Origin: Lachnospiraceae bacterium
Lineage (GTDB): Bacteria > Bacillota > Clostridia > Lachnospirales > Lachnospiraceae
Assembly: GCA_015057055.1 (NCBI GenBank)
Contig: SVFE01000001.1
Location: 23,944-87,943, forward strand
Reading direction: 5' to 3'
DNA length: 64,000 nucleotides
Each line of letters begins with the position of its first letter. Positions within the stretch are counted from its first letter, which is position 1. Shown here in pieces: positions 18,921 to 49,568 of this stretch. The position numbers and the translations under genes are program-made. The notes below the pieces were generated by a model. That model did no database searches. It saw only the letters and a list, made by a program, of their open reading frames with translations, and had not been told where the DNA came from.

Positions 18921-19436
18921 ATGGAAGAATTAGTAAAGGTACTTACAGACCCGGTTTCCAACAAGATTTTACAGCTTATAAGAGTGAATGCGGAGATGAC
19001 GATAGCGGATATTCTGGCTGCCAATATTGGCATACCCAGGGCAACAATCTATCGGAAAATGGAGAAGATAGAAAAGGTTGGTGCTGTGTATGTATCATCC
19101 ACCAACAAGATTCGGGGACAGATAGAAAAGGTATATCGGATTAAGGATATCTATATCGCATCCAAGGGTGATCATAAAGAAGATATGAGAAATGTTACGG
19201 TAAGTCTTATGGGGCTGATAGAACAGTATGAGACTTATTTTCGAAAAGAGAATGCAGATGTTGCAAAAGATAAATTGTTTCTGTTCAATTACAATATTTC
19301 TTTGGACGATGAGGATTTTTCTGCAATGCTGAAGGAAATTTACCAGATTGTGGATAAGTATCAGAACAAGCAAGGTACAGGCGATGAGAAGTTAAGGAAT
19401 CTGTATATGATATCAGCACCGGGAGGCGAAGTATAA
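18921..19436 (+). CDS. ArsR-like winged-helix transcriptional regulator
   Basis: LTDPVSNKILQLI...IPRATIYRKMEKIEKVG HTH; GAGGGA SD before ATG 18921; stop overlaps the next start. Confidence 0.8.
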   Translation: MEELVKVLTDPVSNKILQLIRVNAEMTIADILAANIGIPRATIYRKMEKIEKVGAVYVSSTNKIRGQIEKVYRIKDIYIASKGDHKEDMRNVTVSLMGLIEQYETYFRKENADVAKDKLFLFNYNISLDDEDFSAMLKEIYQIVDKYQNKQGTGDEKLRNLYMISAPGGEV

Positions 19437-20434
19437 TGAATAGAAAGAGAAAAGAACGTATCTTATATCCGCAGTGTGAAAATGGCATCTATAGGTATGA
19501 ATACGTAGAAATCGGCGGGATGAAACAATATATTCAAATAAGAGGCAAGGATAAAAGGAATCCGATATTGCTTTTTATCCATGGCGGTCCGGGTGGGTCC
19601 ATGGCCGGTTATGCTCATGTTATGCAGGATTTGTGGGAAGAAAAGTTTACCGTAGTAAATTGGGACCAGAGAAATACCTGTAAGACATACCTTGCAAATA
19701 AGGATAAATCCATGGAGATTGCTAAAACCGGCACCATGGAGGATTACATGGGGGATATCGACGAAATTATCAAATATCTTCATGGCATATACGAATTTGA
19801 AAAGATTATTTTGCTTGGATTTTCCTGGGGGTCTGTAATTGGCTCGGAATATGCAAAGAGGCATCCTGAAAACGTGTACTGTTATATAGGAGTGGGACAG
19901 CTTATCAACTACGCGGAAGGGTTCCGTGTGGTAGGAAAACAGGTGATAGAGCGTGCAGGGCAAAAGAAGAATAAAAAGGATATAGAAAAGATTCATAAAG
20001 TGCTTAATTCGATGCCGGATGGACCGTATATGACTGACGAGTTCATGAAACAGATACAGATTTTTGTCAGAATCAGCAACCAATATTTGTCAGAGAACAG
20101 TAGGAGTTTATCGTGGAAAGATTTTCTGACATCACCGCTTATGGATCGTAAGGCCAGAAAGGCTATGTATGTGCCTCATGAATTGCTGGCCGGGACATTT
20201 AAAACATTGTACGAATTTGATTTTCGAAATGATTTGAATTTTCCGGTACCGGTATATTTTATAACCGGTGAGGAGGATACCGCCTGTCCGCATAGTTTGC
20301 TTAAAGATATTGCAGATGACATCAATGCACCGAAGAAAAAGTTGTTTATTATGGAAAAAGCAGGGCATTGTTGCTTTTATGATAGAAAACAGGAGTTTTA
20401 CAAGCTTTTGCTGGATGTGAGCGATGAGAATTAA
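19436..20434 (+). CDS. Alpha/beta hydrolase, prolyl aminopeptidase (S33)-like
   Basis: HGGPGG oxyanion motif, WDQR, GFSWG nucleophile elbow, GEED and AGH triad positions. Confidence 0.85.
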   Translation: MNRKRKERILYPQCENGIYRYEYVEIGGMKQYIQIRGKDKRNPILLFIHGGPGGSMAGYAHVMQDLWEEKFTVVNWDQRNTCKTYLANKDKSMEIAKTGTMEDYMGDIDEIIKYLHGIYEFEKIILLGFSWGSVIGSEYAKRHPENVYCYIGVGQLINYAEGFRVVGKQVIERAGQKKNKKDIEKIHKVLNSMPDGPYMTDEFMKQIQIFVRISNQYLSENSRSLSWKDFLTSPLMDRKARKAMYVPHELLAGTFKTLYEFDFRNDLNFPVPVYFITGEEDTACPHSLLKDIADDINAPKKKLFIMEKAGHCCFYDRKQEFYKLLLDVSDEN

Positions 20435-20479: not shown

Positions 20480-20864
20480 ATGATTGATTTGAAAAATGGC
20501 AGAATTAGAATTGCGGATGATTTAATTATTTATCCGAATTATACATTTGATTTGTTTAAGAAAAGTTCTTTCTATACGAATCAGGATGGCGTTAGAATAA
20601 TAATTTTGGAGAAACAGCAAGTTATCGACGGGAATAAATATATGGCAATGCTTTTCTTTAGAAATAATATATATGTTGTCGCTGGTTTGCTGTGAAGAAC
20701 AGTATTCGGAAGAAAATGAAAAGGAAAGGAAAAAACTGCACGACCGTATACTGGAGAAATATGGTGTTATAGGGAAAGCGGAGTATGCATGGGGAACCGT
20801 TTCGTCAGAATATGACGGACGCAGCAATTGCTGTAGTATTAACTTTGTTTTTTATGGTGAATAA
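20480..20864 (+). pseudogene. Hypothetical gene split by a frameshift in an (AT)4 tract
   Basis: ORFs 20480-20695 and 20673-20864 overlap in different frames; adding one AT at 20667-20674 gives a continuous ...FRNNIYMLSLVCCEE... reading. Confidence 0.65.
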
Positions 20865-20911
20865 TAAGAGAAGCAAATTTTTAGACATCTTTTTATATCG
20901 CTGATAAACCG

Positions 20912-20941
20912 AGCCGATGGGGTTAATCTCATCGGCTTTTT
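20912..20941 (+). terminator. Intrinsic terminator
   Basis: AGCCGATGGG-GTTAAT-CTCATCGGCT then TTTT. Confidence 0.8.
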
Positions 20942-20945
20942 CCGA

Positions 20946-21008
20946 TTCACAACATAAAAAGGTTGTTTCACGCAAAAAAATGTAGCAAAGACACAGACCG
21001 GACGATAT
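20946..21008 (+). promoter_or_regulatory. LytTR-type direct repeats plus sigma28-like promoter (site 1)
   Basis: TTCACAAC (20946) and TTCACGCA (20967) start 21 bp apart; then TAG (20983-85), N16, ACGATAT (21002-08). Confidence 0.6.
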
Positions 21009-21049
21009 ACCTATTGGATAGTATGCTAGTATTTTTGAAAGGACCGGTG

Positions 21050-21643
21050 ATGTTTGTGTCTATGACAATCGGAAATAATATGGGAATCAGTAGTGGTTAC
21101 AAGGTAAGTAAAGCAGGTGGTTATAAAAATGTGCGGGAGTATTCCAATTACTTGTTGGGCAAATACAGTTGCCTGAAACCGGGAAGTAACGTGGCCGTGT
21201 CTGTTACATCAGGAATGCTAAGAAAAGCAATGAGTGATGAGAAAACCGGGCAATGGTTGGAGAGAGAACTTGCCAAAGCACCTGATTATATAAAAGAGGC
21301 ACAGCAGTCTGCCGGTGCTCGCGGGAGTAAACTGTTATCGGTTTCTATAGAGTTTGGAGAAGAGTATACAACTATGTGCACTCTGACAGTTACGGATACA
21401 CCGGGTACGGATGAAGATATTGATAAGTGGCTTGAGAGAGTTGAAGAGAACAGAGAAAAACAAAAGGCGACGGAAAAGAGGAACGAAAAAAGAAGTGCCG
21501 AGAAAAAACTGACAGAGCAGAGAATAGAAGAGTATACTTTCAAAGGACTGGATTTAAAGAGTGTTACCGACAGTTTTATTGCAAAGATGTCTTCGGTACG
21601 TTCTGTAATGCCCAAAGCGTCCGGATTTGACATGAAAGTATAA
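21050..21643 (+). CDS. Uncharacterised protein A, DUF6033-like, ends FDMKV
   Basis: YSNYLLGKY...LRKAMSDEKTGQWLERE aligns by eye with 23952 and 26607; K/E-rich coiled coil; no signal peptide; AAAGGA SD (21062 is an alternative start). Confidence 0.7.
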   Translation: MFVSMTIGNNMGISSGYKVSKAGGYKNVREYSNYLLGKYSCLKPGSNVAVSVTSGMLRKAMSDEKTGQWLERELAKAPDYIKEAQQSAGARGSKLLSVSIEFGEEYTTMCTLTVTDTPGTDEDIDKWLERVEENREKQKATEKRNEKRSAEKKLTEQRIEEYTFKGLDLKSVTDSFIAKMSSVRSVMPKASGFDMKV

Positions 21644-21672
21644 AAGAAATATGAATTGCAAAGGAAGATACC

Positions 21673-22380
21673 ATGCATATAGGAATTTGTGATGATGAAA
21701 AAAACATAAGGGAATTATTAGCCGGTAAAGTGACAAAGCAGTATCCGGATGCCGATATTATATTGTTTTCATCGGGGGAAGAACTACTTTTATCGGACAA
21801 ACAGATAGATATTCTATTTTTGGATATTCAAATGCAAGGTAGAAATGGGATGGAAGCGGCTAGGGAACTTCGTAAGAAGGACAAGGGGGTAATACTTGTT
21901 TTTGTGACCGGAGTGGAGGACTATGTCTTTCAGGCATTTGATGTAGGTGCTTTTCATTACATTGTGAAGCCGGTTGATGATGCGAAGTTTGAAGATGTAC
22001 TTTACAGGGCAGTGTCGGAAGTGAAATCTCAAAAAATGCACGAAAAAGAGCCGGAAGATAAATGTTTGATGATAAATAACGGCGGAGTACACATTAAAGT
22101 GATGATTGAGGATATTGTTTACGCGGAGATATTCAATCGAAAGATAGTTATTCATAAAACGGACGAGACAATTGAGTATTACGGGAAGATGTCTGATCTT
22201 GAAACGTTAGCAGGAGAGAACTTTTTCAGACCGCACAGGGCGTATCTCATCAATTTTAAGTATGTTGAAAAATACGATGCTTCTACAGTTTATCTGGAAA
22301 AAGGAAGTGTTCTTATGGCAAAAGGTAAATTCCCGGAGTTTGTCAAAAGATATATGAAGTATATTCAGCGGAAGGGATAA
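21673..22380 (+). CDS. LytTR-family response regulator (AgrA/VirR-like)
   Basis: Receiver ICDDE...LDIQM...VKP plus LytTR domain FFRPHRAYLIN. Confidence 0.93.
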   Translation: MHIGICDDEKNIRELLAGKVTKQYPDADIILFSSGEELLLSDKQIDILFLDIQMQGRNGMEAARELRKKDKGVILVFVTGVEDYVFQAFDVGAFHYIVKPVDDAKFEDVLYRAVSEVKSQKMHEKEPEDKCLMINNGGVHIKVMIEDIVYAEIFNRKIVIHKTDETIEYYGKMSDLETLAGENFFRPHRAYLINFKYVEKYDASTVYLEKGSVLMAKGKFPEFVKRYMKYIQRKG

Positions 22381-22385
22381 TATTT

Positions 22386-23753
22386 ATGAGTCATATGGAA
22401 ATGTACTGGGCGATAGCCAACCATTCAATATCTATAATTAACATTTTGGTGGAATGCTGGTTGTTTTACCGATTTGTGCAGCCGTTTATGAAAAAAGGGG
22501 CATATTACGCCGGATTAAGTTATTCGGCGACAATGCTGGTTTTTTATTGTGTTCCGCAGGAAATTTATTATCCGTATTTTTTCGCAATTCTTATAGCATG
22601 TGTTACGATGTGCTTGTTGGAAAGAAGAAATATTAAGCAGAAAGTATTTTTGGCAACATGTATGTATCTGTTTCGCTGGGTGGTCTATGGAGTAACATTG
22701 GTACTTAGAGATATACTGTTTGCCCTGTTTATTAATACGCCGTATATGTATACGAGACCGATAAAACAATTATGCGCATATATTGTTGTGGAGACGGTGT
22801 ATTACGCCGTGGCTTTATCGGTAATGTATCTGGTGATTCGATTGATTCACAAAGTGTATATAAATAAAAAAGATGACATTTCCGGTAAAGAATTGTTACT
22901 GCTTTATGCCACTCTGTTAACAGTAATGGTAGGCTATATTACTTTCAATTTCTTTTCTAAGGTATATCTGGAGGACATGGAAGTTTATATCTGGAATGTG
23001 CACCCGGGCTATACTTTTTTGCGGGTAATCTATCAGATTGTTTCGTTTGCGGCAATACTTATCGCTATTGTGATATACCAAAAGATAAAGGAAAAACAAC
23101 GTGAAGATAAGGTTAATATTTTATTGGCAGAGCAGCTGGAAAATACGAAACAGCGTATCAGTGAAGTAGAGAAATTGTACGGAGATATGCGTGCAATGAA
23201 ACATGATATGGGAAATCATATCTCGGTGTTGGAAAACCTAATTATGAAAAATGAAACCGAAGAGGTGGAAAAGTATTTATCCGAGTTAAAAGCATCTTGG
23301 AATGAGAACGGGACAGAAATAAAGACGGGCAATCCTGTCACGGATGTGGTTCTGGCGCAAAAGAGGAGAGAGGCAGAAGAAAAAGGAATCGGGTTTAAAT
23401 GTGAATTCGTTTATCCGACGGATACCAATATCAATGCTTTCGATGTCAGTGTGATTTTAAGCAATGCGCTGGAAAATGCTTTTGGAGGTGCAAGCGGCTG
23501 CGAAAATCCTTATGTTTTGATAAATGCGTATCGTAAGAAAAATGCGTATATGTTGGAAGTGAAAAACAGTATCCTTAAATCGGTAGAGATTGATGGTGAA
23601 ACCGGTTTGCCGGAAACAACGAAGGAAGATAAGGAAAGTCACGGTTTTGGACTTGCCAATATTCGCAAGGTGGCGCAGAAATATTACGGAGACATAGATA
23701 TCCATCAGGATGAAAACAGTTTTACATTGACGGTTATGTTGATGGTTGAATAA
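22386..23753 (+). CDS. AgrC/VirS-like membrane sensor histidine kinase (GHKL)
   Basis: About 7 N-terminal TM helices, H-box KHDMGNH, N-box SNALEN, G-box TTKEDKESHGFGL. Confidence 0.9.
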   Translation: MSHMEMYWAIANHSISIINILVECWLFYRFVQPFMKKGAYYAGLSYSATMLVFYCVPQEIYYPYFFAILIACVTMCLLERRNIKQKVFLATCMYLFRWVVYGVTLVLRDILFALFINTPYMYTRPIKQLCAYIVVETVYYAVALSVMYLVIRLIHKVYINKKDDISGKELLLLYATLLTVMVGYITFNFFSKVYLEDMEVYIWNVHPGYTFLRVIYQIVSFAAILIAIVIYQKIKEKQREDKVNILLAEQLENTKQRISEVEKLYGDMRAMKHDMGNHISVLENLIMKNETEEVEKYLSELKASWNENGTEIKTGNPVTDVVLAQKRREAEEKGIGFKCEFVYPTDTNINAFDVSVILSNALENAFGGASGCENPYVLINAYRKKNAYMLEVKNSILKSVEIDGETGLPETTKEDKESHGFGLANIRKVAQKYYGDIDIHQDENSFTLTVMLMVE

Positions 23754-23761
23754 GAAATATG

Positions 23762-23802
23762 AGACACAGTCTGTACAAAAAAGTGTGGATTGTGTCTTTT
23801 TT
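23762..23802 (+). terminator. Intrinsic terminator after the histidine kinase
   Basis: AGACACAGTCTGTAC-AAAAAA-GTGTGGATTGTGTCT (with G-U pairs) then a T run. Confidence 0.75.
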
Positions 23803-23808
23803 ATTTGC

Positions 23809-23883
23809 TTCACAACAGAAAAAGGTCGGTTCACAACAAGTCTATTTAGTATGAAGTTTACTATTCCGAAATAGGAAGTAGCA
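23809..23883 (+). promoter_or_regulatory. LytTR-type direct repeats plus sigma28-like promoter (site 2)
   Basis: TTCACAAC at 23809 and 23830 (21-bp period); TAG (23847-49), N16, CCGAAAT (23866-72); AAGTAGCA at 23876. Confidence 0.65.
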
Positions 23884-23951
23884 GAAGTGTTTGCATATGG
23901 AGAAACGGATTTCTGAACAAAAAGCAAGGAGGAAAACAAGGAGGTTTACCG

Positions 23952-24917
23952 ATGTCAATTATTTCGAATGTAAGTGGTAGTGGACTAAATGCTCAAAATG
24001 CACATAGGCTGAAAGATATCCAAAGGGCAGAAGGAGCAGAAGAAAATGCAAAAAAACGGATGGAAAGAAATCGTGAAAAAGAGGGTGTGAGTTACGAAAA
24101 AACGATTTCCGATTCTGTAACAGCAGGACTTGCGTTTATGCAGGGCTTGGAAAAACAGTTTGGCGGTACAAAGTTCTTTGTTGGAACAGTAAGTTATGGA
24201 CAGACTTATGGTAATTCTATGGATACGAATTTTGTGGTTAATCCCCAATTTCTTGATAAGTTGGGGACTGATGAAGCGGTCAGAAAACAGTTTGAAGAAG
24301 ACGTCAAATATCTGACAGATTTTTCTGAAAGGTTTCGAAAACAGCAACTTGCATCTGGGCGTGAGATTGTAAATCAGGGGTGGTTTTGTGATGAGAATGG
24401 TAATTGGGGTGGCTGGTCGGTTGGCCGACCAATCAATCAAAACTCTGTTTTGCAGGATATGACAGATAGTGCCGAGAAAATTCGGAAGGAAAAGTTTGTG
24501 GAGCGAGAAAAAGCGGAAGCAGAATTGAAAGAACATTTTGGAGACCGTTTCAAAGGATTTAGTGTGAAATGGGCAGAAGATGATAAAACCGGGGAATCGG
24601 AAGGAACAAAAGACAGGGAAGCTTCTTCCGATGAAGAAAGTGAGACCGTATCAGGTAAAGTTGGTGTAAATGTCGGCAAGACTGCAAGAAAAATTTCGGC
24701 GGCAAAGACAAAGGAACAGTTGCGGATGGTGATGGCTGAAATTAAAAGCGATGCCCAGGTCGTGAAAGCAGGAATTGAAAAGGGTTGGTGCGACGAGACA
24801 GAGTTGGACAAAGTGGAGATGCTTATGTCTATGGCGCAGAATCGCATGGGACAAGTGGAAGATAGAGAGGCAACGCCGGAAGAAGAGAGCATGTTTACTC
24901 TGGCTTCATTATTATAA
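23952..24917 (+). CDS. Uncharacterised protein B, DUF6033-like with an extra C-terminal helical domain
   Basis: FMQGLEKQF...NPQFLDKLGTDEAVRKQFEED...GWFCDENG core; AAGGAGG SD. Confidence 0.75.
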   Translation: MSIISNVSGSGLNAQNAHRLKDIQRAEGAEENAKKRMERNREKEGVSYEKTISDSVTAGLAFMQGLEKQFGGTKFFVGTVSYGQTYGNSMDTNFVVNPQFLDKLGTDEAVRKQFEEDVKYLTDFSERFRKQQLASGREIVNQGWFCDENGNWGGWSVGRPINQNSVLQDMTDSAEKIRKEKFVEREKAEAELKEHFGDRFKGFSVKWAEDDKTGESEGTKDREASSDEESETVSGKVGVNVGKTARKISAAKTKEQLRMVMAEIKSDAQVVKAGIEKGWCDETELDKVEMLMSMAQNRMGQVEDREATPEEESMFTLASLL

Positions 24918-24945
24918 TTTGATAGGAAAAAGGAGGATGTTTCGT

Positions 24946-25731
24946 ATGAAAATTAACGGTATAGACGGAATGAACACTTCAATCAAAGGGATGAATATGT
25001 TGCAATCAAATGATTCTGTCAGTAAAAATATTCAGAATAAAATTGCCAATGCGCAGAAACAGTTGCAGGATCTCTCTTCAAACAAAGAGATGAGTATTGA
25101 AGAAAAAATGAAAAAAAGACAGGAAATACAACAACAAATTGCAGATTTGAATAGCCAACTAAGACAACATCAAATCACCCAAAGAAAAGAGCAACAGGCA
25201 AAAGAAACTTCTATGAATGATATGCTTGGCGCAAGTAAGCAGACTGCTTCCGGAACAGGAAAACGAACCGCAGGTTTATCAAGGGCAAATATGAAAGCTA
25301 TGATTTCTGCGGATTCTGCAATGGCGCAGGCAAAGATACAAGGCAGCGTAGCGGGGCAAATGGAAGGTAAAGCCGGTGTATTGGAAACAGAAATCAAGTT
25401 GGACGCTGCCCGGGGAGTCGACGTGGAAAAAAAGAAAGAGGAACTGGCAGAAGTAGAACAGAAGGCAACTGCGGCAGAGACTGCGCAGCTGAGTACTTTA
25501 GCAGATGCCAATAAGGAACTGGAAGCGGCAACGAAGGAAGAACGGCAGACAAAGCGTGTCGACGAAAAGAATACGAAGGAAGAAAAGACAGAAAATAAGA
25601 TTAGTGTGGATGCTATTGATAATTCGGATGTTGACAATGTGATAAATGAAAATGGTACGGAAATGACAGAAACCGAGGAGCCTCTTTCAAAGGAAACAAC
25701 TTCGTCCGTGCATGTTGATGTTAGAGTATAG
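24946..25731 (+). CDS. FlxA-like coiled-coil protein C, ends VDVRV
   Basis: IQNKIANAQKQLQDLS...KMKKRQEIQQQIADLNSQL pattern typical of FlxA-like proteins; AGGAGG SD before ATG 24946. Confidence 0.7.
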   Translation: MKINGIDGMNTSIKGMNMLQSNDSVSKNIQNKIANAQKQLQDLSSNKEMSIEEKMKKRQEIQQQIADLNSQLRQHQITQRKEQQAKETSMNDMLGASKQTASGTGKRTAGLSRANMKAMISADSAMAQAKIQGSVAGQMEGKAGVLETEIKLDAARGVDVEKKKEELAEVEQKATAAETAQLSTLADANKELEAATKEERQTKRVDEKNTKEEKTENKISVDAIDNSDVDNVINENGTEMTETEEPLSKETTSSVHVDVRV

Positions 25732-25743
25732 GAGGAGATTGCG

Positions 25744-26493
25744 ATGGCAGGAATAAATAAATTTAATCAATATATGAATCTGTATAATTCAGAGGATTAT
25801 TCGTTGTTTTCGGGAGGTGCGCAGTTGCCGTCAATGAGCAGCTCCTATAGCCTTTCGGATTATGCTGCAATAAAGAACGGTAGTTATGGCAAAGCGTTAA
25901 AAGCGTATTATAAAAAAATGGATGCAGAGAAATTATCTTTCGGAGCAGATTCCGCACAAAAGAATTTGCTTATGAAATCCGGCGCCGATGCTTTGGAGAA
26001 ATCTGCGGAGGCTCTAAAAAAGGATACTCTTTGGGAGAAGAAGGAAACCCGGGAAAAAGATGAAGCAACGGGAGAAGAAACTGTAGTGCATGATTATGAC
26101 CGGGATGCTATTGCCAAAGCGGTAAAAACTTTTGTTGAGGATTATAATGATGCCGTGGAACAGGCCGGTGATTCCGATTCAAAAGAGGTATTAAGAAATG
26201 CAATGTGGATGACCGATACTACGGATGCAAACAAAAAGGTCCTTGCAAAAATCGGGATTGAAGTAGGAAAGGGAAATAAGCTGGAGTTGGATGAAGAAAC
26301 CCTCAGAAAGGCGGATATCGGCACGCTCAAAATGCTTTTTACAGGCTATAATTCTTTTGCAGATAAGGTATCCATGAAAGCAAGAAGTATTTCTGCTGCA
26401 TCATCAAAGGCCGGCGTTACTTATACGAGTGACGGAAAGTATAATGACGTAGTGTCGAAACTTGTATCAAAGAAAGTGAACAAAGAAGTATAA
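25744..26493 (+). CDS. Uncharacterised protein D resembling the FliD C-terminal domain
   Basis: AVKTFVEDYN...LAKIGIEV...LELDEETL...LKMLFTG resembles FliD_C; GGAGGAG SD. Confidence 0.6.
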   Translation: MAGINKFNQYMNLYNSEDYSLFSGGAQLPSMSSSYSLSDYAAIKNGSYGKALKAYYKKMDAEKLSFGADSAQKNLLMKSGADALEKSAEALKKDTLWEKKETREKDEATGEETVVHDYDRDAIAKAVKTFVEDYNDAVEQAGDSDSKEVLRNAMWMTDTTDANKKVLAKIGIEVGKGNKLELDEETLRKADIGTLKMLFTGYNSFADKVSMKARSISAASSKAGVTYTSDGKYNDVVSKLVSKKVNKEV

Positions 26494-26519
26494 AATTGCA
26501 TATCCTCTTGTGATGTTTA

Positions 26520-26558
26520 TAATATTTGAGGACAAATATGCCGATATACAAAGTAGCA
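26520..26558 (+). promoter_or_regulatory. sigma28 (SigD/FliA)-like promoter (site 3)
   Basis: TAAT (26520-23), N16, GCCGATAT (26540-47), a perfect SigD -10; AAGTAGCA at 26551. Confidence 0.7.
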
Positions 26559-26606
26559 TAGTATGGGTAAAAGGATTTACCGCGCAAAATACAAGGAGGT
26601 AGCAGG

Positions 26607-27380
26607 ATGGATGTTGGTATAATGAATAGCAGTATTCATGCATCGTCAGAGGCATATGCTGCGAAAGAAGCAAAGCAAACGAAAGAGACAAAGCCGGCGA
26701 AAGAAAACAAACCTACCGAGGAAGTTAAAAAATACGGTGTTTCCGGTAGGACAGTAGGGCAACCGAAACTTAGTGAAAATGCAAAGAAGTATTATGAGGA
26801 ATTAAAGTCTAAATTTCAAAATATGGATTTTATTCTGGTGAGCAAGGATATGAAGGAAATGGCCAAAGCGAATGCCGGAAGTTTTGCTAATCCTCATAAA
26901 ATGGTTGTTTTGATTGACGAAGAAAAAATTGAACGTATGGCGACGGACGAGCAGTATCGCAAGCAATACGAAGGCATTATTGCTTCCGCGGGAAACAAAT
27001 TACCGCAGCTACAAAAAACGCTGGAAAAATCCGGGAAGGTGAAAGCCTTCGGCATGCAGATTAATGACAATGGAGCAGCTTCGTTTTTTGCCGTGATGGA
27101 TAACGCATTTAAGTCCCAGGCCAAACGATTGGAAAAACAAAGAGCCGAGAAAAAAGAAGAAAAGAAAGCGGCAGAGAAAAAAGCGGAGAAAGCAAAACGG
27201 GAGGAACAACTTAAGGAGAAACGCCTTTCGAAAGGCGAAGAATCGGAAACGGTAATATATGCAGATTCGTTCGAAGAGTTAAAACTGAAAGTAGAGGATT
27301 ATATTTTTGAACATATGGCGGACACCGTAAAGACGGATTCTGAAAGATATCTTGGAACGCATATCGATTTCAAGGGTTAG
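26607..27380 (+). CDS. Uncharacterised protein E, DUF6033-like, ends IDFKG
   Basis: YYEELKSKF...IDEEKIERMATDEQYRKQYEG...FGMQINDNG core plus K/E/A coiled coil. Confidence 0.75.
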   Translation: MDVGIMNSSIHASSEAYAAKEAKQTKETKPAKENKPTEEVKKYGVSGRTVGQPKLSENAKKYYEELKSKFQNMDFILVSKDMKEMAKANAGSFANPHKMVVLIDEEKIERMATDEQYRKQYEGIIASAGNKLPQLQKTLEKSGKVKAFGMQINDNGAASFFAVMDNAFKSQAKRLEKQRAEKKEEKKAAEKKAEKAKREEQLKEKRLSKGEESETVIYADSFEELKLKVEDYIFEHMADTVKTDSERYLGTHIDFKG

Positions 27381-27390
27381 GAGGCACGTC

Positions 27391-28134
27391 ATGATTACGG
27401 GAACCATCTATAATGCGGGGAAAATGCTGGAAATGACACAAAAGTGGGAGCAAAAGAAAGCATCCGGTAATATCCTCGGAAAAGAGAAAAAGGAATTGTC
27501 ACCGGAAGAACAACAACTCAAAATGTATCAGGAACAGCTTGCGAGTATGCGGGAGGGAAACGAAGTCAGTGCCATATATGCAAAACTTCAAAGCGGTCAG
27601 GAACTGAGTCCGGAAGAAGAGGGAATCCTTCGTGAGAGAGACCCTAAACTGTACATGGAGTATAAGGCGGATCGAATGGAACAGGAAGCCTACGAGAAAG
27701 AGTTGAAAAATTGTAAGACAAAGGAAGAAGCGGAAAAACTTCATGTAAACCGAATGAACGGCAAGCTGTCTGAATTAAAATCAATTGTAAATAATCCGAA
27801 TATCCCTAAAAGTGAAAAAATAAAAGAGTCACAGAGAATTCTGGGAGACACTACGAAAACGGCGCAGATTTTTCAGATATTTACAAAAAGTGAGGAGTTT
27901 AAGAAACTGCCCACGGAAGAAGAAGCGGCGGAAAACAGCCGGGAAGAGGCGAATCTGCAAGAAGAGCAACCGCCGGTAGAAACGGATGAATATGCAGAGG
28001 TTACTTCAGATGGTGCTTCAGGTAGTGATAACGATAATAACATTTCGACGGAGGTATTGAAAGAAATGCTTGCGTTGGAGAAAAAGCATTTTGGAGAATT
28101 AAAAAAGACGGTAAAAATTGATGTCACAATCTAA
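27391..28134 (+). CDS. Uncharacterised coiled-coil protein F, ends IDVTI
   Basis: GGAGG SD overlapping the upstream stop; repeated ELSPEE; acidic tail. Confidence 0.7.
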   Translation: MITGTIYNAGKMLEMTQKWEQKKASGNILGKEKKELSPEEQQLKMYQEQLASMREGNEVSAIYAKLQSGQELSPEEEGILRERDPKLYMEYKADRMEQEAYEKELKNCKTKEEAEKLHVNRMNGKLSELKSIVNNPNIPKSEKIKESQRILGDTTKTAQIFQIFTKSEEFKKLPTEEEAAENSREEANLQEEQPPVETDEYAEVTSDGASGSDNDNNISTEVLKEMLALEKKHFGELKKTVKIDVTI

Positions 28135-28137
28135 TAA

Positions 28138-28166
28138 TTTACTTTTAAGCCCGAACATGGTATATT
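28138..28166 (+). promoter_or_regulatory. sigmaA-like promoter for ychF
   Basis: TTTACT, N17, TATATT with extended TG. Confidence 0.5.
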
Positions 28167-28284
28167 GATACTGTTGTGCGGGCTTATTTTTATGGAAAGA
28201 ACCCGGTGCACGTCATGAAATGAAACCAACAAAGGAAAATAAAAAAGCCGTAAAGCAGCGGTTTTTAAGGAGGAAATAGAAGCC

Positions 28285-29382
28285 ATGAAGCTCGGAATCG
28301 TGGGATTACCCAACGTAGGAAAATCAACTTTATTTAATTCGCTTACCAAGGCAGGGGCAGAATCTGCCAACTACCCGTTCTGTACCATTGACCCCAATGT
28401 AGGCGTGGTGGCAGTGCCGGATGAGAGAATCAAACTTTTGGGCAATATGTACCAGTCCAAGAAGGTGACTCCTGCGGTGATTGAATTTGTGGATATTGCA
28501 GGCTTGGTAAAAGGCGCATCCAAGGGAGAAGGTCTCGGAAATCAGTTCCTTGCCAACATTCGTGAAGTGGATGCCATTGTGCATGTGGTTCGTTGTTTTG
28601 AAGATGCCAATATCGTGCACGTAGATGGTAACATCAATCCCTTAAGAGACATTGAAACCATCAATTTAGAACTTTTATTCTCGGACCTTGAGATTTTGGA
28701 ACGAAGAATTGCCAAGACATCCAAGGGTGCAAAGAACGATAAAACCCAGGCGAAAGAGCTCGTGCTTTTGGAAGCGTTAAAGACTCACATGGAAGAAGGG
28801 GCGATGGCAAAGACCTATGAGCCCAAGGACGAAGATGAGGAGGCCTGGTTTGCGTCCTACAATTTATTGACCGCAAAGCCGGTGATTTATGCAGCCAATG
28901 TGGCAGAGGATGATTTGGCGGATGACGGCGTAAATAATGAGCAGGTAAAGGCGGTTCGTGAATATGCCAAAAACGAAGGCAGTGAAGTGTTTGTTATCTG
29001 CGCCCAGATTGAACAGGAAATCGCAGAGTTGGATGACGACGAGAAGATGATGTTCTTGGAGGATTTGGGATTAAAAGAGTCCGGATTGGACAAACTGATT
29101 GCAGCAAGCTATTCCTTGCTTGGACTGATTAGTTATCTGACCGCCGGAGAGGATGAGACCAGAGCATGGACCATCAAGGTGGGAACGAAAGCACCCCAGG
29201 CAGCAGGAAAGATTCATTCTGATTTCGAGCGTGGATTTATCCGGGCAGAAGTTGTAAATTACAAAGATTTGCTGGAACTTGGTTCTTTGGCGGCGGCCAA
29301 GGAAAAGGGCCTCGTGGGATTGGAAGGTAAGGAATACGTGGTGCAGGACGGAGACGTTATTTTGTTCCGCTTTAATGTGTAA
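28285..29382 (+). CDS. ychF: Redox-regulated ribosome-binding ATPase
   Basis: GIVGLPNVGKSTLFN, NYPFCTIDPN, DIAGLVKGA, GKIHSDFERGFIRAE, DGDVILFRFNV. Confidence 0.98.
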   Translation: MKLGIVGLPNVGKSTLFNSLTKAGAESANYPFCTIDPNVGVVAVPDERIKLLGNMYQSKKVTPAVIEFVDIAGLVKGASKGEGLGNQFLANIREVDAIVHVVRCFEDANIVHVDGNINPLRDIETINLELLFSDLEILERRIAKTSKGAKNDKTQAKELVLLEALKTHMEEGAMAKTYEPKDEDEEAWFASYNLLTAKPVIYAANVAEDDLADDGVNNEQVKAVREYAKNEGSEVFVICAQIEQEIAELDDDEKMMFLEDLGLKESGLDKLIAASYSLLGLISYLTAGEDETRAWTIKVGTKAPQAAGKIHSDFERGFIRAEVVNYKDLLELGSLAAAKEKGLVGLEGKEYVVQDGDVILFRFNV

Positions 29383-43879: not shown

Positions 43880-44653
43880 GTGCAGTACACCATATACATA
43901 GATGTTCTCTTTTATAAACTGTTTATCCTTAGTTTTGTATTGCTTTGGTCGGCGGGAATGTGGAACCGGGCATCAATGAAACTTTGGAAAATTTCCATCG
44001 GTGCCGCTGTCTGGAGCATTATATCCATTGCATGTCTTATGCTTCCGCAGGAAATCAGGCTTGTAGCAGGATTTATGTTGCAGTGTTTCCTGGGGCTGGT
44101 AGTTCTGACGCTGGTATTTGGAAAAACGAATTGGATTTCCTTTGTTTTTATTGCATTGTATTACTCCGGGATATTCCGGATGCTGGATTGGTTGCAGCCC
44201 ATGCTTGGAAAGACCGGGGCGCAGCTGTGTATACTTTCGATTGCCTTGGTGATTTTTGCGTTTTCATTGAAAAGAGGAAGGGAAAACAAGTATGTAACCG
44301 TATCTCTGCATACCGGAGATGAGACTTTGGAAATAAAAGCGCTGGTGGATTCCGGAAATTCTCTCTCGGAACCGTTAAGCGGAAAGCCGGCGTGCGTGTT
44401 GGAGAAAGATTGCCTGCCGGAAAACTGGCAGCCGGAAGAACCTTATTGCAGTCCCGGAATTTTTTTAATTCCTTATCGGGCAGTTGGCACGGAGGAAGGC
44501 CTTCTGCAGGGCATTTGTTTTAAAAATGCCAAGGTCAAGGCCGATAATAAAACGATGCTGTGCAAAGAGATGATGGTTGCCCTTTGTGAACAGAAATTGT
44601 CAAAAAATGGGGCTTACCGGATGCTCTTACACGAGGACTACCGGCCGGATTAG
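43880..44653 (+). CDS. spoIIGA: Pro-sigmaE processing aspartic peptidase
   Basis: IYIDVLF N-terminus, TM region, [16 protein letters not shown]; directly before sigE. Confidence 0.9.
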
Positions 44654-44676
44654 TTTTTAGAAAGGAAAGGAATGTT

Positions 44677-45456
44677 ATGTTGCAAATGGTTTTACCCGTA
44701 AAGTGGAATTTTATTGTGGGACGAGGCAACTCTATTTTTAACCGGGGAGGAGAAATTCATTACATAGGCGGTGCAGACATTTTGCCGGCGCCGCTTTCGC
44801 CGGAAGAAGAGACGGAGATGATTTCTCACATGGAAAACGAAGGAAGCGTTTCGGCCAAAAACAGTTTGATTGAGCACAATTTACGTTTGGTGGTTTATAT
44901 TGCCAAAAAATTTGATAATACGGGAATCGGTGTAGAGGATTTAATATCCATCGGAACCATTGGCTTAATTAAGGCCATTAATACATTTCGTTCCGACAAA
45001 AATATCAAACTGGCAACTTATGCTTCCAGATGCATTGAAAATGAAATTCTGATGTATCTTCGGCGAAATAACAAGACGAAAATGGAGGTTTCCATTGATG
45101 AGCCGTTGAATGTGGACTGGGACGGTAATGAACTTCTCCTTTCTGATATTTTGGGTACGGAGGAGGACATTATCTATCGGGATATTGAGACGGAGGCGGA
45201 ACAAAAAATGCTGTCAAAGGCGATTGAACGGCTAAAAGAACGTGAAAAAACAATCGTTATGCTTCGGTTTGGTATTAACCGCTCGGACGGAAAAGAAATG
45301 ACGCAAAAGGAAGTGGCGGATTTGCTGGGGATATCCCAATCCTATATTTCCAGATTGGAAAAAAAGATTATGAAACGTTTGCAAAAGGAGATGCTTCGTG
45401 AAGAAAACGGACGTGGACCGGAAGGGAATCAGCAGTATATTTCCGCCCGCTCTTAG
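44677..45456 (+). CDS. sigE: Sporulation sigma factor E (C-terminus extended over spoIIIAA)
   Basis: Pro-sequence, [54 protein letters not shown]. Confidence 0.95.
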
Positions 45457-46381
45457 AGAGATGGCAAATCGAATCTGTGATTTGCCAGGGGTGGAAGAAA
45501 TACGCATCAGACGAAACTGTCCGGTGATTGTTTATGCCGGCGGCGCAGAATATTGGATTTCAAAAAACGGCCGGCGGGTGTTTTCTTTGGAAGAGGCATA
45601 TCATTGCAGTGGGGAAGACTTGGAGCAGATGCTTTCTTTTCTGTGCAGACAGTCGGTTTATGCATATGAAGAGGAACTTCGGCAAGGCTTTGTAACGATT
45701 CCCGGCGGGCACCGCGTAGGGATTGCGGGACAGGTTATCCGGGAGAAAGGAAAGGTAAAAAATATACGGTATATATCCGGAATGAATATACGAATTGCCG
45801 GTATGGTGAACGGAGCAGCGGATTCTCTTCTGCCTTATCTGTACGAGAACGGCGTATTTTGCAATACCTTGGTGTTATCTCCGCCAGGATGCGGAAAAAC
45901 AACGCTGCTACGGGATTTGATTCGGCAAATATCAAACGGAAATCCCTTTGCGCCGGGACAGACTGTGGGGGTCGTTGATGAGCGTTCGGAGCTTTCCGGC
46001 GGTTATCTGGGTGAGGCTTTTCTGGATTTGGGAATCCGCACGGATGTACTGGATCGGTGTCCGAAATCGGAAGGAATGATGATGTTGGTACGAAGCATGA
46101 ATCCTTCTGTTTTGGCAGTCGATGAACTGGGCGGAGAAGAAGATGTGACGGCGCTTAAGACCGCCCTGTATTGCGGCTGTAAAATACTGGCAACCGTCCA
46201 CGGAAATGATTTGAGCGATATCGACAGGAAACCTTCTCTTAGGCATTTGCAGGAAGAAAAAGCGTTTTGTCGAATTCTTCGGCTATATAAAAAGGATGGA
46301 ATTTTTTCTTCCGAAATCTATAACGGGGAGGGGCGGCTCATGGACAGAAAAAGACTCGTTAGGAGAGACGAAGCGCAATGA
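45398..46381 (+). CDS. spoIIIAA: Stage III sporulation protein AA (ATPase)
   Basis: [38 protein letters not shown]. Confidence 0.95.
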
Positions 46382-46890
46382 AACTGCTGGGAGCATTACT
46401 TTTGATTACCGGTGCCGGCGGCCTTGGCTATCTGGCGGAATACGGATTGAAGCGGCGAATTACGTTCTTACTGAAATTGAAGGAATTATTACTGTTGCTG
46501 GAAAGCGAAATTACATATAAAAACGCAACATTGGGTGAAGCGTTTTGGGAACTGTCTGAAAGAAAGCAAGGCATGGAGGGTTCGTTTTTAAAGGATGTTT
46601 TTGAAGGAATGGAAGTACAGGGAAGAAATTTTGAGGACGTTTGGTGCGAATATTTGAAAAAATGGGGTAACGACAACGGTTTGACAGAAGAAGATTTAAG
46701 GGGCGCATTTTCTTTTTCGGATGCGGTAGGTATATATGACATTTCCTTGCAGGAGAGAATGATTCGGTATGCAACGGAGCAGCTGGAGGAACGGATTCGT
46801 TTATTAAAAAAAGAGCATGAAAAAAAGGGAAAAGCCTATTTCTATCTCGGGATTGCCGGCGGAGCAATGGGAGTAATCATTTTTCTGTAA
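46378..46890 (+). CDS. spoIIIAB: Stage III sporulation protein AB
   Basis: [17 protein letters not shown]-terminal TM; operon order. Confidence 0.88.
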   Translation: MKLLGALLLITGAGGLGYLAEYGLKRRITFLLKLKELLLLLESEITYKNATLGEAFWELSERKQGMEGSFLKDVFEGMEVQGRNFEDVWCEYLKKWGNDNGLTEEDLRGAFSFSDAVGIYDISLQERMIRYATEQLEERIRLLKKEHEKKGKAYFYLGIAGGAMGVIIFL

Positions 46891-46902
46891 TAAGGGGGAA
46901 TT

Positions 46903-47097
46903 ATGAACGAAGGGTTAATTTTTAAAATAGCAGCGGTAGGAATTCTTATCGCTGTGTTAAATCAAATATTGAAACACAGCGGGCGGGATGAACAGGCATT
47001 TTTGCTTAGTCTTGCCGGTCTGGTATTGGTACTGACCTGGATTGTACCCTACATTGCAACCCTGTTTGAGACCATTCGGGATTTATTTGAATTGTAA
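46903..47097 (+). CDS. spoIIIAC: Stage III sporulation protein AC
   Basis: LIFKIAAVGILIAVLNQILKHSGRDEQA. Confidence 0.93.
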   Translation: MNEGLIFKIAAVGILIAVLNQILKHSGRDEQAFLLSLAGLVLVLTWIVPYIATLFETIRDLFEL

Positions 47098-47106
47098 GGG
47101 CTGTGT

Positions 47107-47493
47107 ATGGAAGCGATAAAGATTGCATTATTGGGAATCGTTGTAGTGCTTCTTGCCATCGTGGTACGACAAAAAGAGCCGGTGTTCGGCACGCTTTTGT
47201 CGCTGGCGGGATGTTTCCTTGTGTTTGGAGCTATTATTTCAAGAGTATCGGCAGTGGTCATTCTCCTGGAGGATTTAATGGAACTATTGGGGGAGCAAAG
47301 GGCATATTTATTGTTGCTCCTTAAGGCGGTGGGAATCACCATGCTGACGGAATTTTCAGCCGGTATCTGCAAGGAAAACGGTCTTGTGGCAATGGGAGAT
47401 CTGGTACGTATTTTCGGGAAAATCTCCGTGCTGCTTTTGGGGATTCCCATTATGGCAAGTCTCTTGGAAGTCATTCTGTCATTTTCGCTTTAA
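47107..47493 (+). CDS. spoIIIAD: Stage III sporulation protein AD
   Basis: LLKAVGITMLTEFSAGICKENG, GKISVL. Confidence 0.92.
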   Translation: MEAIKIALLGIVVVLLAIVVRQKEPVFGTLLSLAGCFLVFGAIISRVSAVVILLEDLMELLGEQRAYLLLLLKAVGITMLTEFSAGICKENGLVAMGDLVRIFGKISVLLLGIPIMASLLEVILSFSL

Positions 47494-47521
47494 TCGGATG
47501 AGGCCGGGAAGGGTAAGAAAA

Positions 47522-48637
47522 ATGCTGTGGATTATTGGTAAATGCAATGCCGCCACTTTGGCTGACGGCGGTGAAGAAGGGGAAAACTATATGGACGAGT
47601 TTCTGGCGGAATATGATTTTTCTGAGGCGCAGGAGCTTATTGATGAAGCACTTCCGGATTTTACGATGTCCGTTGATGAACTTTTGGCAGGAATCATTTC
47701 CGGAGAAAATGTGCTGTCTTTTTCGGAATGTTGTAATCAAATTTTAGCGGCAATGCAGGCGGAATGGTGGGAGAGGAAGGAATTGTTTGCCGTGCTTTTG
47801 CTTTGCGGTATATTGGCTTCTTTTTGTAAAAATATCGCGGGTCTTTGTGAAAACAAACAAATTATAGATTTGGGATACTACTTTATCTATCTGCTGCTAG
47901 CCGTTTTTTTGTTTGAGGCATTTACTGATGCAGCGGACATTGTCCGGGAGTGTCTTGAAAACATAACCGCTTTTTTATCGGCATTATTGCCGAGTTATTT
48001 TCTGGCGGTAGGAATGGCAGTAGGGACTACGACGGCGGCCGGCTTTTATCAGATTGCCCTTGTGGTTATCTGCGGCGTGCAATATGTTTTTTTACTGCTT
48101 CTTTTGCCGGCCTGCCTTCTTTACATGTTTTTGTCGGTCATCAGCGGTTTGTCCGGAGAAGACCGGATGGCCGGAATATTGGGCCTTCTTTTTAAACTAA
48201 TCGGATATGTACAAAAAACTTCCCTTGCCATCGTAGGGGGCTTGAGTGCAGTGCAAATGTGTATTTCGCCTATGGTGGACGGGGTTAGTTACGGTGCGGC
48301 AAAAAAGGTTCTGGGGGCGTTGCCCGGGGTGGGGAATATTACGGATTCTTCACTGCAACTGATTTCCGGGGCCCTTCTTTTGATTAAGAACGGAATCGGT
48401 GTTACGATTTTGGTTTTTTTGCTTTTTTTATGCCTGGTGCCTGCGGTACGGGTATTTACCATTGTACTGATTTTAAAGGTCGGGAGTGCGTTGATGGCAC
48501 TGGTTACGGATTTTAGAATTGTAAAATGTACGGACCGGGTTGGTACCGGAAGTATGCAATTGCTGAAACTTTTAGTGACTGCATTTACGCTTAATTTTGT
48601 GTGTATCGCAATTGCTGCAGCCAGTAGGGGGATATAG
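47522..48637 (+). CDS. spoIIIAE: Stage III sporulation protein AE (start uncertain: 47498, 47522 or 47591)
   Basis: Polytopic membrane protein with LPGVGN, LIKNGIG, LCLVP; operon order. Confidence 0.88.
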   Translation: MLWIIGKCNAATLADGGEEGENYMDEFLAEYDFSEAQELIDEALPDFTMSVDELLAGIISGENVLSFSECCNQILAAMQAEWWERKELFAVLLLCGILASFCKNIAGLCENKQIIDLGYYFIYLLLAVFLFEAFTDAADIVRECLENITAFLSALLPSYFLAVGMAVGTTTAAGFYQIALVVICGVQYVFLLLLLPACLLYMFLSVISGLSGEDRMAGILGLLFKLIGYVQKTSLAIVGGLSAVQMCISPMVDGVSYGAAKKVLGALPGVGNITDSSLQLISGALLLIKNGIGVTILVFLLFLCLVPAVRVFTIVLILKVGSALMALVTDFRIVKCTDRVGTGSMQLLKLLVTAFTLNFVCIAIAAASRGI

Positions 48638-48640
48638 AAC

Positions 48641-48958
48641 TTGGATGAATGGATAGAACAAATAAAATGTGTGGGCGTATATATAATTTTGGGTGAAATG
48701 CTGCTGCATCTTGTACCGGGAAAAGAATATGAGAAGTACTTCCGCTTCATTCTGGATTTGTCCGCGGTAGCGATCATTTTTGTCCCGCTACTGGCAGGAG
48801 GATTACCGGGGACCGGTAATGCAAGAGACGCTTCCTTGCAGGTAGAATCGGTGCTGGCGGAAGAGGTCAATGATTTTGAGGAAAATTACAATGTGCATTT
48901 GCAGAATATTCAGGAAAATATTGCGAAAAAAATGAATGGGGAAGGAACGGCGGAATGA
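48641..48958 (+). CDS. spoIIIAF: Stage III sporulation protein AF
   Basis: W...LVPGKEYEKYFRF; operon order. Confidence 0.85.
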   Translation: MDEWIEQIKCVGVYIILGEMLLHLVPGKEYEKYFRFILDLSAVAIIFVPLLAGGLPGTGNARDASLQVESVLAEEVNDFEENYNVHLQNIQENIAKKMNGEGTAE

Positions 48959-49551
48959 ATTTAGATTTTCTGGAAAAGAAAAAAGTTTTTTTGGAAAAAG
49001 TACTGAAAAAAGAGAACCTGTTTCTTCTGATGTTGGCAGGTATATTGATTTTGGTCGTTGCCTGGCCGTTGCCGGATGCGGAGGCGGAAAATGTCATGGC
49101 AGAAGCAGACGTTGTAGGCAGAGAAAATGTTATGTCTGCTGCAACGGAGCTTGAAAACTACCAAAGGGAAACGGAAGAACGGCTTGAAGAAATATTATCT
49201 TCTATGGAAGGTGTCGGAGAATGCAGGGTCATGATTACCCTGGCAACATCCTATGAGAGCATTGTGCTTCGGGATACGGATTCTTCTTCCCGGGAAAGTG
49301 AAGATTCCGGCGGAGAAGAGACGCATCATGAATCGGAAGAGGCGGATTTGACAACCACTGTTTTTTATACCGATGCGGAGGGAAATGAGGTGCCGTATTG
49401 TGTTCAAACCATATATCCCGAGGTGGAAGGCGTGGTGGTAGTAGCGCAGGGCGCAGGTGATGCGGAAACCGTGATTAATATTACGGATGCAATTCAGGCA
49501 TTATTTGGAATTGAGGCACATAAGATTAGAGTAGTAAAAATGAAAATTTAA
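48955..49551 (+). CDS. spoIIIAG: Stage III sporulation protein AG
   Basis: LEEILSSMEGVGECRVMITL, PEVEGVVVVAQGA, IEAHKIRV. Confidence 0.93.
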   Translation: MNLDFLEKKKVFLEKVLKKENLFLLMLAGILILVVAWPLPDAEAENVMAEADVVGRENVMSAATELENYQRETEERLEEILSSMEGVGECRVMITLATSYESIVLRDTDSSSRESEDSGGEETHHESEEADLTTTVFYTDAEGNEVPYCVQTIYPEVEGVVVVAQGAGDAETVINITDAIQALFGIEAHKIRVVKMKI

Positions 49552-49568
49552 TTATATAGGAGGACAAC

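Follow-up and report, generated by a model that had tools for sequence, protein, structure and literature searches.

Which form of RNA polymerase reads a cluster of eight genes in an uncultured Lachnospiraceae bacterium, and does it need an activator to do so? The cluster lies at 20.9-28.2 kb of a 64-kb stretch of contig SVFE01000001.1 (GenBank assembly GCA_015057055.1), which was analysed as a whole and is called the window in the following. According to Pfam, all eight genes are on the plus strand and encode a short DUF6033 protein (A), a LytTR response regulator, a membrane histidine kinase, a second DUF6033 protein (B), a FlxA-like protein (C), a FliD_C-like protein (D), a third DUF6033 protein (E) and a protein without family (F). 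A first-pass annotation, made from the letters alone, had proposed three promoters for the flagellar sigma factor sigma28 (FliA/SigD): site 1 ahead of A-regulator-kinase and site 2 ahead of B-C-D, both next to LytTR-type repeats, and site 3 ahead of E-F. The observation is confirmed, and comparative data back it well beyond chance. Phylogenetic footprinting shows one activator-independent sigma28-type promoter and two repeat-bearing promoters that combine a sigma28-type -10 with a weak -35. We assign a probability of about 0.6 to the reading that sites 1 and 2 act as AND gates, which would require the sigma28 holoenzyme as well as the phosphorylated LytTR regulator.

The repeat-free promoter of E-F

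Site 3 (26520-26558, plus strand) consists of the -35 element TAAT (26520-26523), a spacer of 16 nucleotides and the -10 element GCCGATAT (26540-26547), at the positions given by the first-pass annotation, and no activator repeat was found upstream of it. Its transcript is predicted to start at about 26555, within AAGTAGCA (26551-26558).

Homologues of E were collected from 59 loci, all of them in Lachnospiraceae or near relatives. In 47 of these, [C/T]CGATA occurs 40-340 nt upstream of the gene and within the architecture of site 3. Counted from the first C of CCGATAT, the -35 of these 47 promoters shows T at -21 (40/47), A or T at -20, A at -19 (36/47) and A at -18 (43/47), while the surroundings of the -10 are marked by G at -1 (31/47), A at +7 (40/47) and a T-purine step at +13/+14. 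The resulting consensus T[A/T]AA-N16-GCCGATATA, or T[A/T]AA-N16-G[C/A/T]CGATATA when written as a motif, equals the sigma28 consensus of Butyrivibrio fibrisolvens, TAAA-(N16-17)-MCGATAa, which has been used for the flagellin genes of Roseburia and Eubacterium (PMC3720852). A regular-expression search of the fetched loci for flagellin genes, meant to calibrate the consensus, gave none.

A weight matrix trained on the 47 homologous promoters was used to score 127,938 positions of the window, and site 3 ranks first. Its -35, TAAT, matches TAAA in three of four positions. The nearest orthologues of site 3 read TTAA-N16-GACGATATA (locus L062), TTAA-N16-GTCGATATA (L001, L002) and TATA-N16-GTCGATATA (L004). 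Since they vary at position 0 of the -10, this position is free, as it is in MCGATAa. The orthologues keep the G-N-CGATATA of site 3 but not the overlapping TATAAT. TTGCAT-N17-TATAAT (26476-26524), which overlaps the -35 of site 3, was considered as the true promoter of E and rejected, as it is not conserved in L062, L001, L002 and L004. The comparison supports site 3 as a putative sigma28-type promoter that would work independently of an activator.

Other strong matches to the matrix, with scores of 16.7-17.6, are located at 53005-53037 (plus strand), 19753-19785 (minus) and 47973-48005 (minus). All three lie within coding regions, the first in the RF3 gene and the other two antisense to an alpha/beta-hydrolase-like gene (19436-20434) and to spoIIIAE, respectively, and they are probably due to chance or represent intragenic sites like those of E. 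coli FliA.

The repeat-bearing promoters of A-regulator-kinase and B-C-D

Sites 1 and 2 each carry a pair of 9-bp direct repeats with a 21-bp period, which fits the layout of LytTR sites (PMC5600425). At site 1 the pair covers 20946-20975 of the plus strand and reads TTCACAACA (20946-20954)-N12-TTCACGCAA (20967-20975), the proximal copy being degenerate. The promoter core follows at 20981-21008 (plus strand), with TGTA as -35 (20981-20984), ACGATAT as -10 (21002-21008) and a predicted start at about 21016. The pair of site 2 (23809-23838, plus strand) is TTCACAACA-N12-TTCACAACA, with exact copies at 23809 and 23830. Here the core at 23845-23883 (plus strand) comprises TTTA (23845-23848), CCGAAAT (23866-23872) and a start predicted at about 23880, inside AAGTAGCA (23876-23883). 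Exact copies of TTCACAACA occur three times in the window (20946, 23809 and 23830), all at sites 1 and 2. The -10 of site 1 fits MCGATAa of B. fibrisolvens (PMC3720852), and an orthologue of site 3 has GACGATATA at this place; the -10 of site 2 is one base off the sigma28 element (GCCGATAA or CCGATAT; MCGATAa in Butyrivibrio).

The first-pass annotation had described the two sites as TAG-N16-ACGATAT and TAG-N16-CCGAAAT. Both strings are present together with the repeats (TAG at 20983-20985 and 23847-23849, 16 nt before the respective -10), but TAG lies 2 nt downstream of the -35 position of the family, in which the first T precedes the first C of CCGATAT by 21 nt (-21 to -18). In this register the -35 is TAAT at site 3, TGTA at site 1 and TTTA at site 2; with the register corrected, the -35 elements of sites 1 and 2 are still degenerate. 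The string AAGTAGCA, pointed out as lying exactly 3 nt after the -10 of sites 2 and 3, has its sole two copies in the window there (23876 and 26551). It is largely the common start-site context A10-A11-n-T13-A14 of both promoter classes, and the idea of a specific shared operator was dropped, as the string is not conserved in the closest site 3 orthologues.

Synteny from the regulator gene through kinase, B and C to D is seen in 18 further genomes with 54-77% protein identity, and the repeat pair of site 2 is present in all 18 orthologous intergenic regions between kinase and B. Their common layout is TTCACAACA-N12-TTCACAACA-agtctaTTTAgtatgaag-(8-9 variable nt)-[C/A/T]CGAAAT-AGGAAnTAnCAGAAGTGT, with [C/A/T]CGAAAT in 17 of the 18 and ACGATAT in L078. 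The repeats, like TTTA and CGAAAT, are near-invariant in genomes whose proteins on either side of site 2 share only 57-77% identity. Three other readings were discarded. TACTAT (23859-23864), the sole hexamer of site 2 resembling a -10 of the housekeeping factor sigmaA, falls into the most variable stretch of 8-9 nt; CGA as a third LytTR half-site would lie 36-37 nt from the second repeat, start to start, and misfits the 21-bp period; and a sigmaH-type promoter would call for an AGGA-type -35, which is missing.

Fixed geometry of repeat and -10 across genomes

An exact scan for the repeat pair in one genome per species (185,579 species) returned 120 loci, 22 of them from Clostridia. The Clostridia loci were pooled with the loci collected earlier and near-duplicates were removed, which left 31 repeat pairs. 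CGA[ACT]A is found exactly 27 nt (5 pairs) or 28 nt (19 pairs) behind the second repeat, that is in 24 of the 31 pairs, with just 2 copies of the motif elsewhere in the 60 nt downstream. One of the pairs met in these genomes, TTCACACAA-N26-CCGATATACC ahead of a DUF6033 gene in L094, resembles site 1 and has the same offset, shorter by 1 nt. The genes behind promoters of the CGA class encode regulators and proteins of the FlxA-like, FliD_C-like and DUF6033 families; a further three products have no family. Seven pairs are exceptions: two spurious overlaps, L076 and L077, and finally L129, L144 and L156, in which TATATT, TATCCT or TATGCT stands 29-34 nt after the repeat and is preceded by TG in two of the three. 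What is observed directly are the sequence elements with their conservation and fixed geometry, and which genes lie next to them.

These counts bear on the simplest objection, namely that sites 1 and 2 resemble a sigma28 -10 by chance and hold no sigma-specific information. Its appeal stems from the weight matrix, in which site 1 ranks only 41 and site 2 only 22 of 127,938, and from the over-representation of CCGATAT in coding sequence, with 25 copies versus 7.7 expected. A coincidence would hardly produce one fixed offset in 24 of 31 non-redundant sites from many species, with the motif nearly absent at other offsets. Repeat pairs of Flavobacteriaceae (with TAnnTTTG behind them) and of Nostoc, where they form tandem arrays, have no CGA at that offset. 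We consider a chance likeness most improbable.

In Flavobacteriaceae, the identical TTCACAACA-N12-TTCACAACA is located 24-33 nt upstream of TAnnTTTG (L080-L199, e.g., L080:3379, L090:4135 and L106:6137), which we take to be the -7 promoter element of Bacteroidetes. The LytTR-type repeat and its spacing seem to be used there with a third kind of promoter.

Within the Clostridia, the repeat-bearing class differs from the repeat-free E family in a consistent manner. T at -21 is kept (25/31), while A at -18 drops to 14/31 versus 43/47; at -19 there is T in 25/31 versus A in 36/47, and at -1 there is T in 22/31 versus G in 31/47. Both the -35 and the base before the core -10 are thus systematically weaker, which fits promoters that are unable to work unaided. 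Work by Koo et al. from 2009 is said, by its title, to treat the upstream part of the E. coli sigma28 -10 region as an 'extended -10' motif.

The regulator-kinase promoter in relatives and the housekeeping sigma factor

The counterpart of site 1 was traced through the orthologous regulator loci, where the regulators are 54-77% identical and synteny is conserved. A repeat pair precedes the regulator gene in 14 of these loci, in most relatives about 100 nt directly upstream and with no gene A in between. In 12 of 15 orthologues the promoter reads repeat-N27-CCGATATAAT, so that a perfect sigma28 -10 overlaps a perfect sigmaA -10. TCGAAA stands 17 nt upstream of TATAAT, which makes a respectable sigmaA promoter. 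L076 and L077 retain TATAAT and have lost CCGA, whereas the window and L060, the locus of the metagenome-assembled genome that represents the window's species, retain CGATAT and have TATACC in place of TATAAT. Because of the overlapping sigmaA -10, and because two relatives keep TATAAT without CCGA, we regard the regulator-kinase class as ambiguous or dual.

It could be argued from here that sites 1 and 2 are LytTR-activated promoters of the housekeeping sigma factor, comparable to agr P2 and P3, that CGA serves as spacer, as part of an extended -10 or otherwise, and that only site 3 belongs to sigma28. In the cases studied so far, LytTR sites are located on the upstream side of a housekeeping -35 (PMC5600425). 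In our data set, the sigmaA-like hexamers at 29-34 nt share the register of CGAWAW; either type of -10 is hence preceded by the repeat at the same position. To this add TCGAAA-N17-TATAAT of the regulator-kinase promoters, the two relatives that lose CCGA and not TATAAT, and the G that CG-A-TATAAT would provide at -14 of an extended -10. Several observations speak against this view. A usable sigmaA hexamer is lacking at site 2, where both candidate frames, AATAGG and GAAATA, end without the final T, and in no fewer than eight further independent types of promoter. Promoters with CGA and no sigmaA-like overlap include CCGAAAGAAT (L097, L123, L165), CCGATAAAAG (L151), ACGATAAAGT (L160), GCCGACATAAA (L150) and GCGAAATATA (L083, L143, L194). 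Among all 31 repeat-bearing sites, the would-be last position of the hexamer is T in just 15, as compared to 24 with CGA at one fixed offset; A at +7 is found in 29. Even TATAAT of the regulator promoters is displaced, lying 3 nt downstream of the register of the clear sigmaA-type examples, and site 1 of the window has TATACC. On balance we hold a purely housekeeping origin of sites 1 and 2 to be unlikely.

A compromise is conceivable for the regulator-kinase class including site 1. It might combine a housekeeping promoter for basal expression with an overlapping, LytTR-assisted sigma28 promoter for feedback, which would leave only promoters of the B-C-D type as pure AND gates. This would be in line with the CCGATATAAT overlap in 12 of 15 orthologues, of which some lineages have lost one half and some the other, and a two-component system presumably needs basal expression before it can induce itself. 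In the window and L060, however, the housekeeping half is degraded (TATACC, with TGTAGC in the -35 region); transcripts of regulator and kinase in the window would have to come from the sigma28-type element or from read-through. Such a dual arrangement strikes us as distinctly unlikely for the class as a whole.

Proposed mechanism

In the reading that we prefer, all three transcription units are read by polymerase carrying sigma28, which is active late in flagellar assembly. The sigma factor in use, the binding of the regulator to the repeats, the transcript starts and any role of CsrA are what we infer from the sequence. For E-F, the self-sufficient promoter of the form T[A/T]AA-N16-GCCGATATA would need sigma28 alone; read-through from B-C-D might contribute, since the terminator scan gave no terminator in the gap between D and E. 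A-regulator-kinase and B-C-D would keep the core -10 CGA[T/A]AT and require help, as the weak -35 (TGTA, TTTA) and the missing G before the -10 should make sites 1 and 2 poor sigma28 promoters on their own. This help would come from a dimer of the phosphorylated regulator on the two 9-bp repeats, which would recruit or stabilise the sigma28 holoenzyme. For a start at about +14, counted from the first C, the repeat centres are predicted at about -46 and -67, and the repeats end 6 nt before the -35 position. The regulator would boost its own synthesis, and the DUF6033, FlxA-like and FliD_C-like proteins would be made only if active sigma28 coincides with a signal sensed by the kinase. The messages of B and E might in addition be subject to CsrA-type control via a hairpin with a GGA loop and the GGA of the ribosome-binding site.

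From a biological point of view, this may amount to an additional, signal-gated tier of flagellar expression in many Lachnospiraceae of gut and rumen, in which an AgrCA-like pair gates FlxA-like, short FliD_C-like and DUF6033 proteins resembling export substrates, and CsrA holds their messages. We regard this wider picture as tentative, its chances being slightly short of even.

Several facts weigh against the proposed AND gate and have to be set beside it. Going by their matrix ranks, sites 1 and 2 are weak by themselves. The degenerate -35 of the repeat class does not look like random decay of TAAA, because 25 of 31 sites have T and not A at -19. Searches for flagellar genes, fliA or flgM within the 64-kb window gave none. 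The regulator promoters of relatives contain the respectable sigmaA promoter described above, and L076 and L077 have kept just this part. LytTR regulators characterised so far act mostly at housekeeping-sigma promoters, with a similar distance between repeat and -10. Finally, contigs from RNA runs (X1-X5 for the window; X10, X11, X13 and X14 for the locus of Lachnospira hominis) cover the promoters, too, or have different upstream DNA; where the promoters are covered, this is due to read-through, DNA carry-over or other strains. For L123, a Roseburia locus, no RNA run was listed.

Relation to known systems

Control of sigma28 promoters is commonly ascribed to the sigma factor and its anti-sigma factor alone. 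Few direct activators are known, the textbook case being CRP at aer and trg. The first-pass annotation knew of no activator-dependent sigma28 promoters of this type; sigma28 promoters that depend on an activator do exist. The E. coli promoters aer and trg are activated by CRP from position -49.5 (Hollands et al. 2010, PMC2859248). CRP contacts the C-terminal domain of the alpha subunit there, and domain 4 of sigma28 is located further downstream than that of sigma70 (PMC2859248). As in these cases, the activator of sites 1 and 2 would sit just upstream of the -35 (proximal repeat predicted at about -46) and would join the flagellar stage to a second signal. The aer promoter, TAAAGATA-n11-GCCGACAT (PMC2859248), shares the feature of a variant -10 (GCCGACAT). 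In contrast, its -35 is near consensus (TAAAGATA), while our sites are weak both in the -35 and at the base preceding the -10. A LytTR regulator on tandem direct repeats would take the place of a CRP dimer on a palindrome, and the host is a Gram-positive anaerobe whose system is known from sequence alone. The principle of an activator-dependent sigma28 promoter is not new; the LytTR partner and this regulon are.

On the side of the regulator, agr P2 and P3 of Staphylococcus aureus provide the closest layout, with two imperfect 9-bp repeats, 12 bp apart, that abut the -35 (PMC5600425). The agr system also autoregulates its own operon, controls a second output operon and employs a multi-pass GHKL kinase. 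Quorum promoters of the agr type differ in using the housekeeping sigma factor and in directing toxins, bacteriocins or competence, whereas the outputs here are flagellum-like, and no agrB- or agrD-like peptide genes adjoin this regulator-kinase pair. A LytTR-family regulator that co-activates a promoter of an alternative sigma factor has been described in Pseudomonas aeruginosa, where AlgR works with AlgU (sigma22) at algD (PMC4064291). AlgU is an extracytoplasmic function sigma factor, however, and the AlgR sites are inverted, lie far upstream and involve DNA looping and several co-regulators; they have no tandem repeat with a 21-bp period next to the -35.

In comparison to the flagellin promoters of SigD in Lachnospiraceae, site 3 and the promoters of E homologues have the same consensus, but the genes behind them are not flagellin genes and lie away from motility loci, and sites 1 and 2 carry an activator site in addition. 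Related genera are flagellate, carry fliA and have csrA within their motility loci, as seen in Roseburia and Eubacterium (PMC3720852). Variant -10 elements appear acceptable to sigma28 elsewhere. In chromatin immunoprecipitation, E. coli FliA is bound in vivo at a GCCGAAATA site (table entry TAATATTTTGCGAGTTCACGCCGAAATA under pntA), and flxA is a FliA target (PMC4183435). Besides this site and aer, three E homologues support the notion, as they use TGCCGAAATA with the same variant -10 as site 2.

A literature search for sigma28 promoters with a LytTR site turned up none, and no publication was found that mentions DUF6033. The nearest case is an agrA mutant of Clostridioides difficile with lower expression of flagellar genes including fliA, an apparently indirect effect. 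If the proposed AND gate is true, it would be the first regulon co-dependent on LytTR and sigma28, and a conserved family of such promoters would mean that Gram-positive gut anaerobes join two-component input and flagellar checkpoint at the promoter. It would also define a regulon and give a functional handle on DUF6033, FlxA-like and stand-alone FliD_C-like proteins, families encoded by motile commensals that are abundant, such as Lachnospira, Roseburia, Agathobacter and Butyrivibrio. Moreover, the fixed geometry, with the repeat ending 27 nt before CCGA and in the register of a sigmaA hexamer, would allow for a precise model of a LytTR dimer on a non-housekeeping holoenzyme.

Leader hairpins and a possible role of CsrA

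A possible second layer of control is seen in the 5' untranslated regions of B and E. The leader of B contains a hairpin with a CGGA tetraloop (23898-23915, plus strand) about 20 nt before AAGGAGG, which resembles a CsrA site. In the leader of E, the hairpin ggtaaaAGGAtttacc (26566-26581, plus strand) lies upstream of the ribosome-binding site CAAGGAGG. The general form is an NGGA tetraloop on an AAA/UUU-capped stem, 20-25 nt upstream of CAAGGAGG, and 42 instances of it were found before B, E and their homologues (L001-L166). The stem is supported by five covarying pairs, with a covariation score of 0.506 as compared to 0.133 in shuffles (0 of 500 shuffles reach the observed value). The leader of gene A has no NGGA hairpin. 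Together with the second GGA in the ribosome-binding site, the hairpin is arranged like the pair of CsrA sites in the flagellin (hag) mRNA of Bacillus subtilis. By analogy to flagellin mRNA, this suggests CsrA-type translational control of the B and E messages.

An insertion of approximately 32 nt is present in the B leader of L060 (5935-5975), L061, L065 and the runs X4 and X5, whereas the window lacks it (23931-23936). The insertion brings in a hairpin (acctctgctcgcagaggctcgcattttccttc) and a second copy of the region of the ribosome-binding site ggaaaacaaggagg.

Gene cluster and window context

All genes and terminators listed here are on the plus strand. Gene A (21062-21643, alternative start 21050) encodes the short DUF6033 protein (PF19498, E = 3.8e-09). 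It is followed by the response regulator, which combines a receiver domain with a LytTR DNA-binding domain (21673-22380; PF00072, PF04397), and by the multi-pass membrane histidine kinase of the GHKL type (HATPase_c_5), which has an AgrC-like layout (22386-23753; PF14501, E = 5.6e-24). The operon B-C-D covers 23952-26493 and consists, by Pfam matches, of the DUF6033 gene B (23952-24917), the FlxA-like gene C (24946-25731) and the FliD_C-like gene D (25744-26493). Gene E (26607-27380; PF19498, E = 5.7e-76) and gene F (27391-28134), which has no Pfam match, form a pair that is also present in L001, L005, L008 and L015. The proteins of L060 are 97-100% identical to those of the window.

Upstream of site 1, a hairpin at 20911-20942 (gagccgatg...catcggctt and a T run), recognised by eye, likely terminates the preceding unit; the terminator scan missed it, as its loop is longer than 8 nt, and orthologues have an equivalent hairpin ahead of the repeat. 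Behind the kinase gene, the scan found an intrinsic terminator with a 16-pair stem and a T run (23761-23798). A scan for sigma70-type promoters returned zero sites across all three intergenic regions of the cluster, and no Rfam family matched within 20500-28500.

The window's species and L060 are the only ones with gene A between the repeat promoter and the regulator gene (window 21050-21672). In the relatives L061-L078 the regulator gene lies directly behind its own promoter, and A-like genes occur elsewhere, e.g., after C or D (L066, L073), which shows the operon composition of the regulon to be fluid. Some genomes contain two or more copies of paralogous regulator modules or of promoters with repeat and CGA (L097/L126, L094, L165); in Lachnospira hominis NSJ-43 (L097, L126), regulator genes with repeats are located on two contigs.

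Outside the cluster, the window contains cell-division genes grouped together, the spoIIIA operon and spoIIGA, which has a sigma-factor gene beside it. The sporulation genes, at 43880-50243, mark the organism as a potential spore former.

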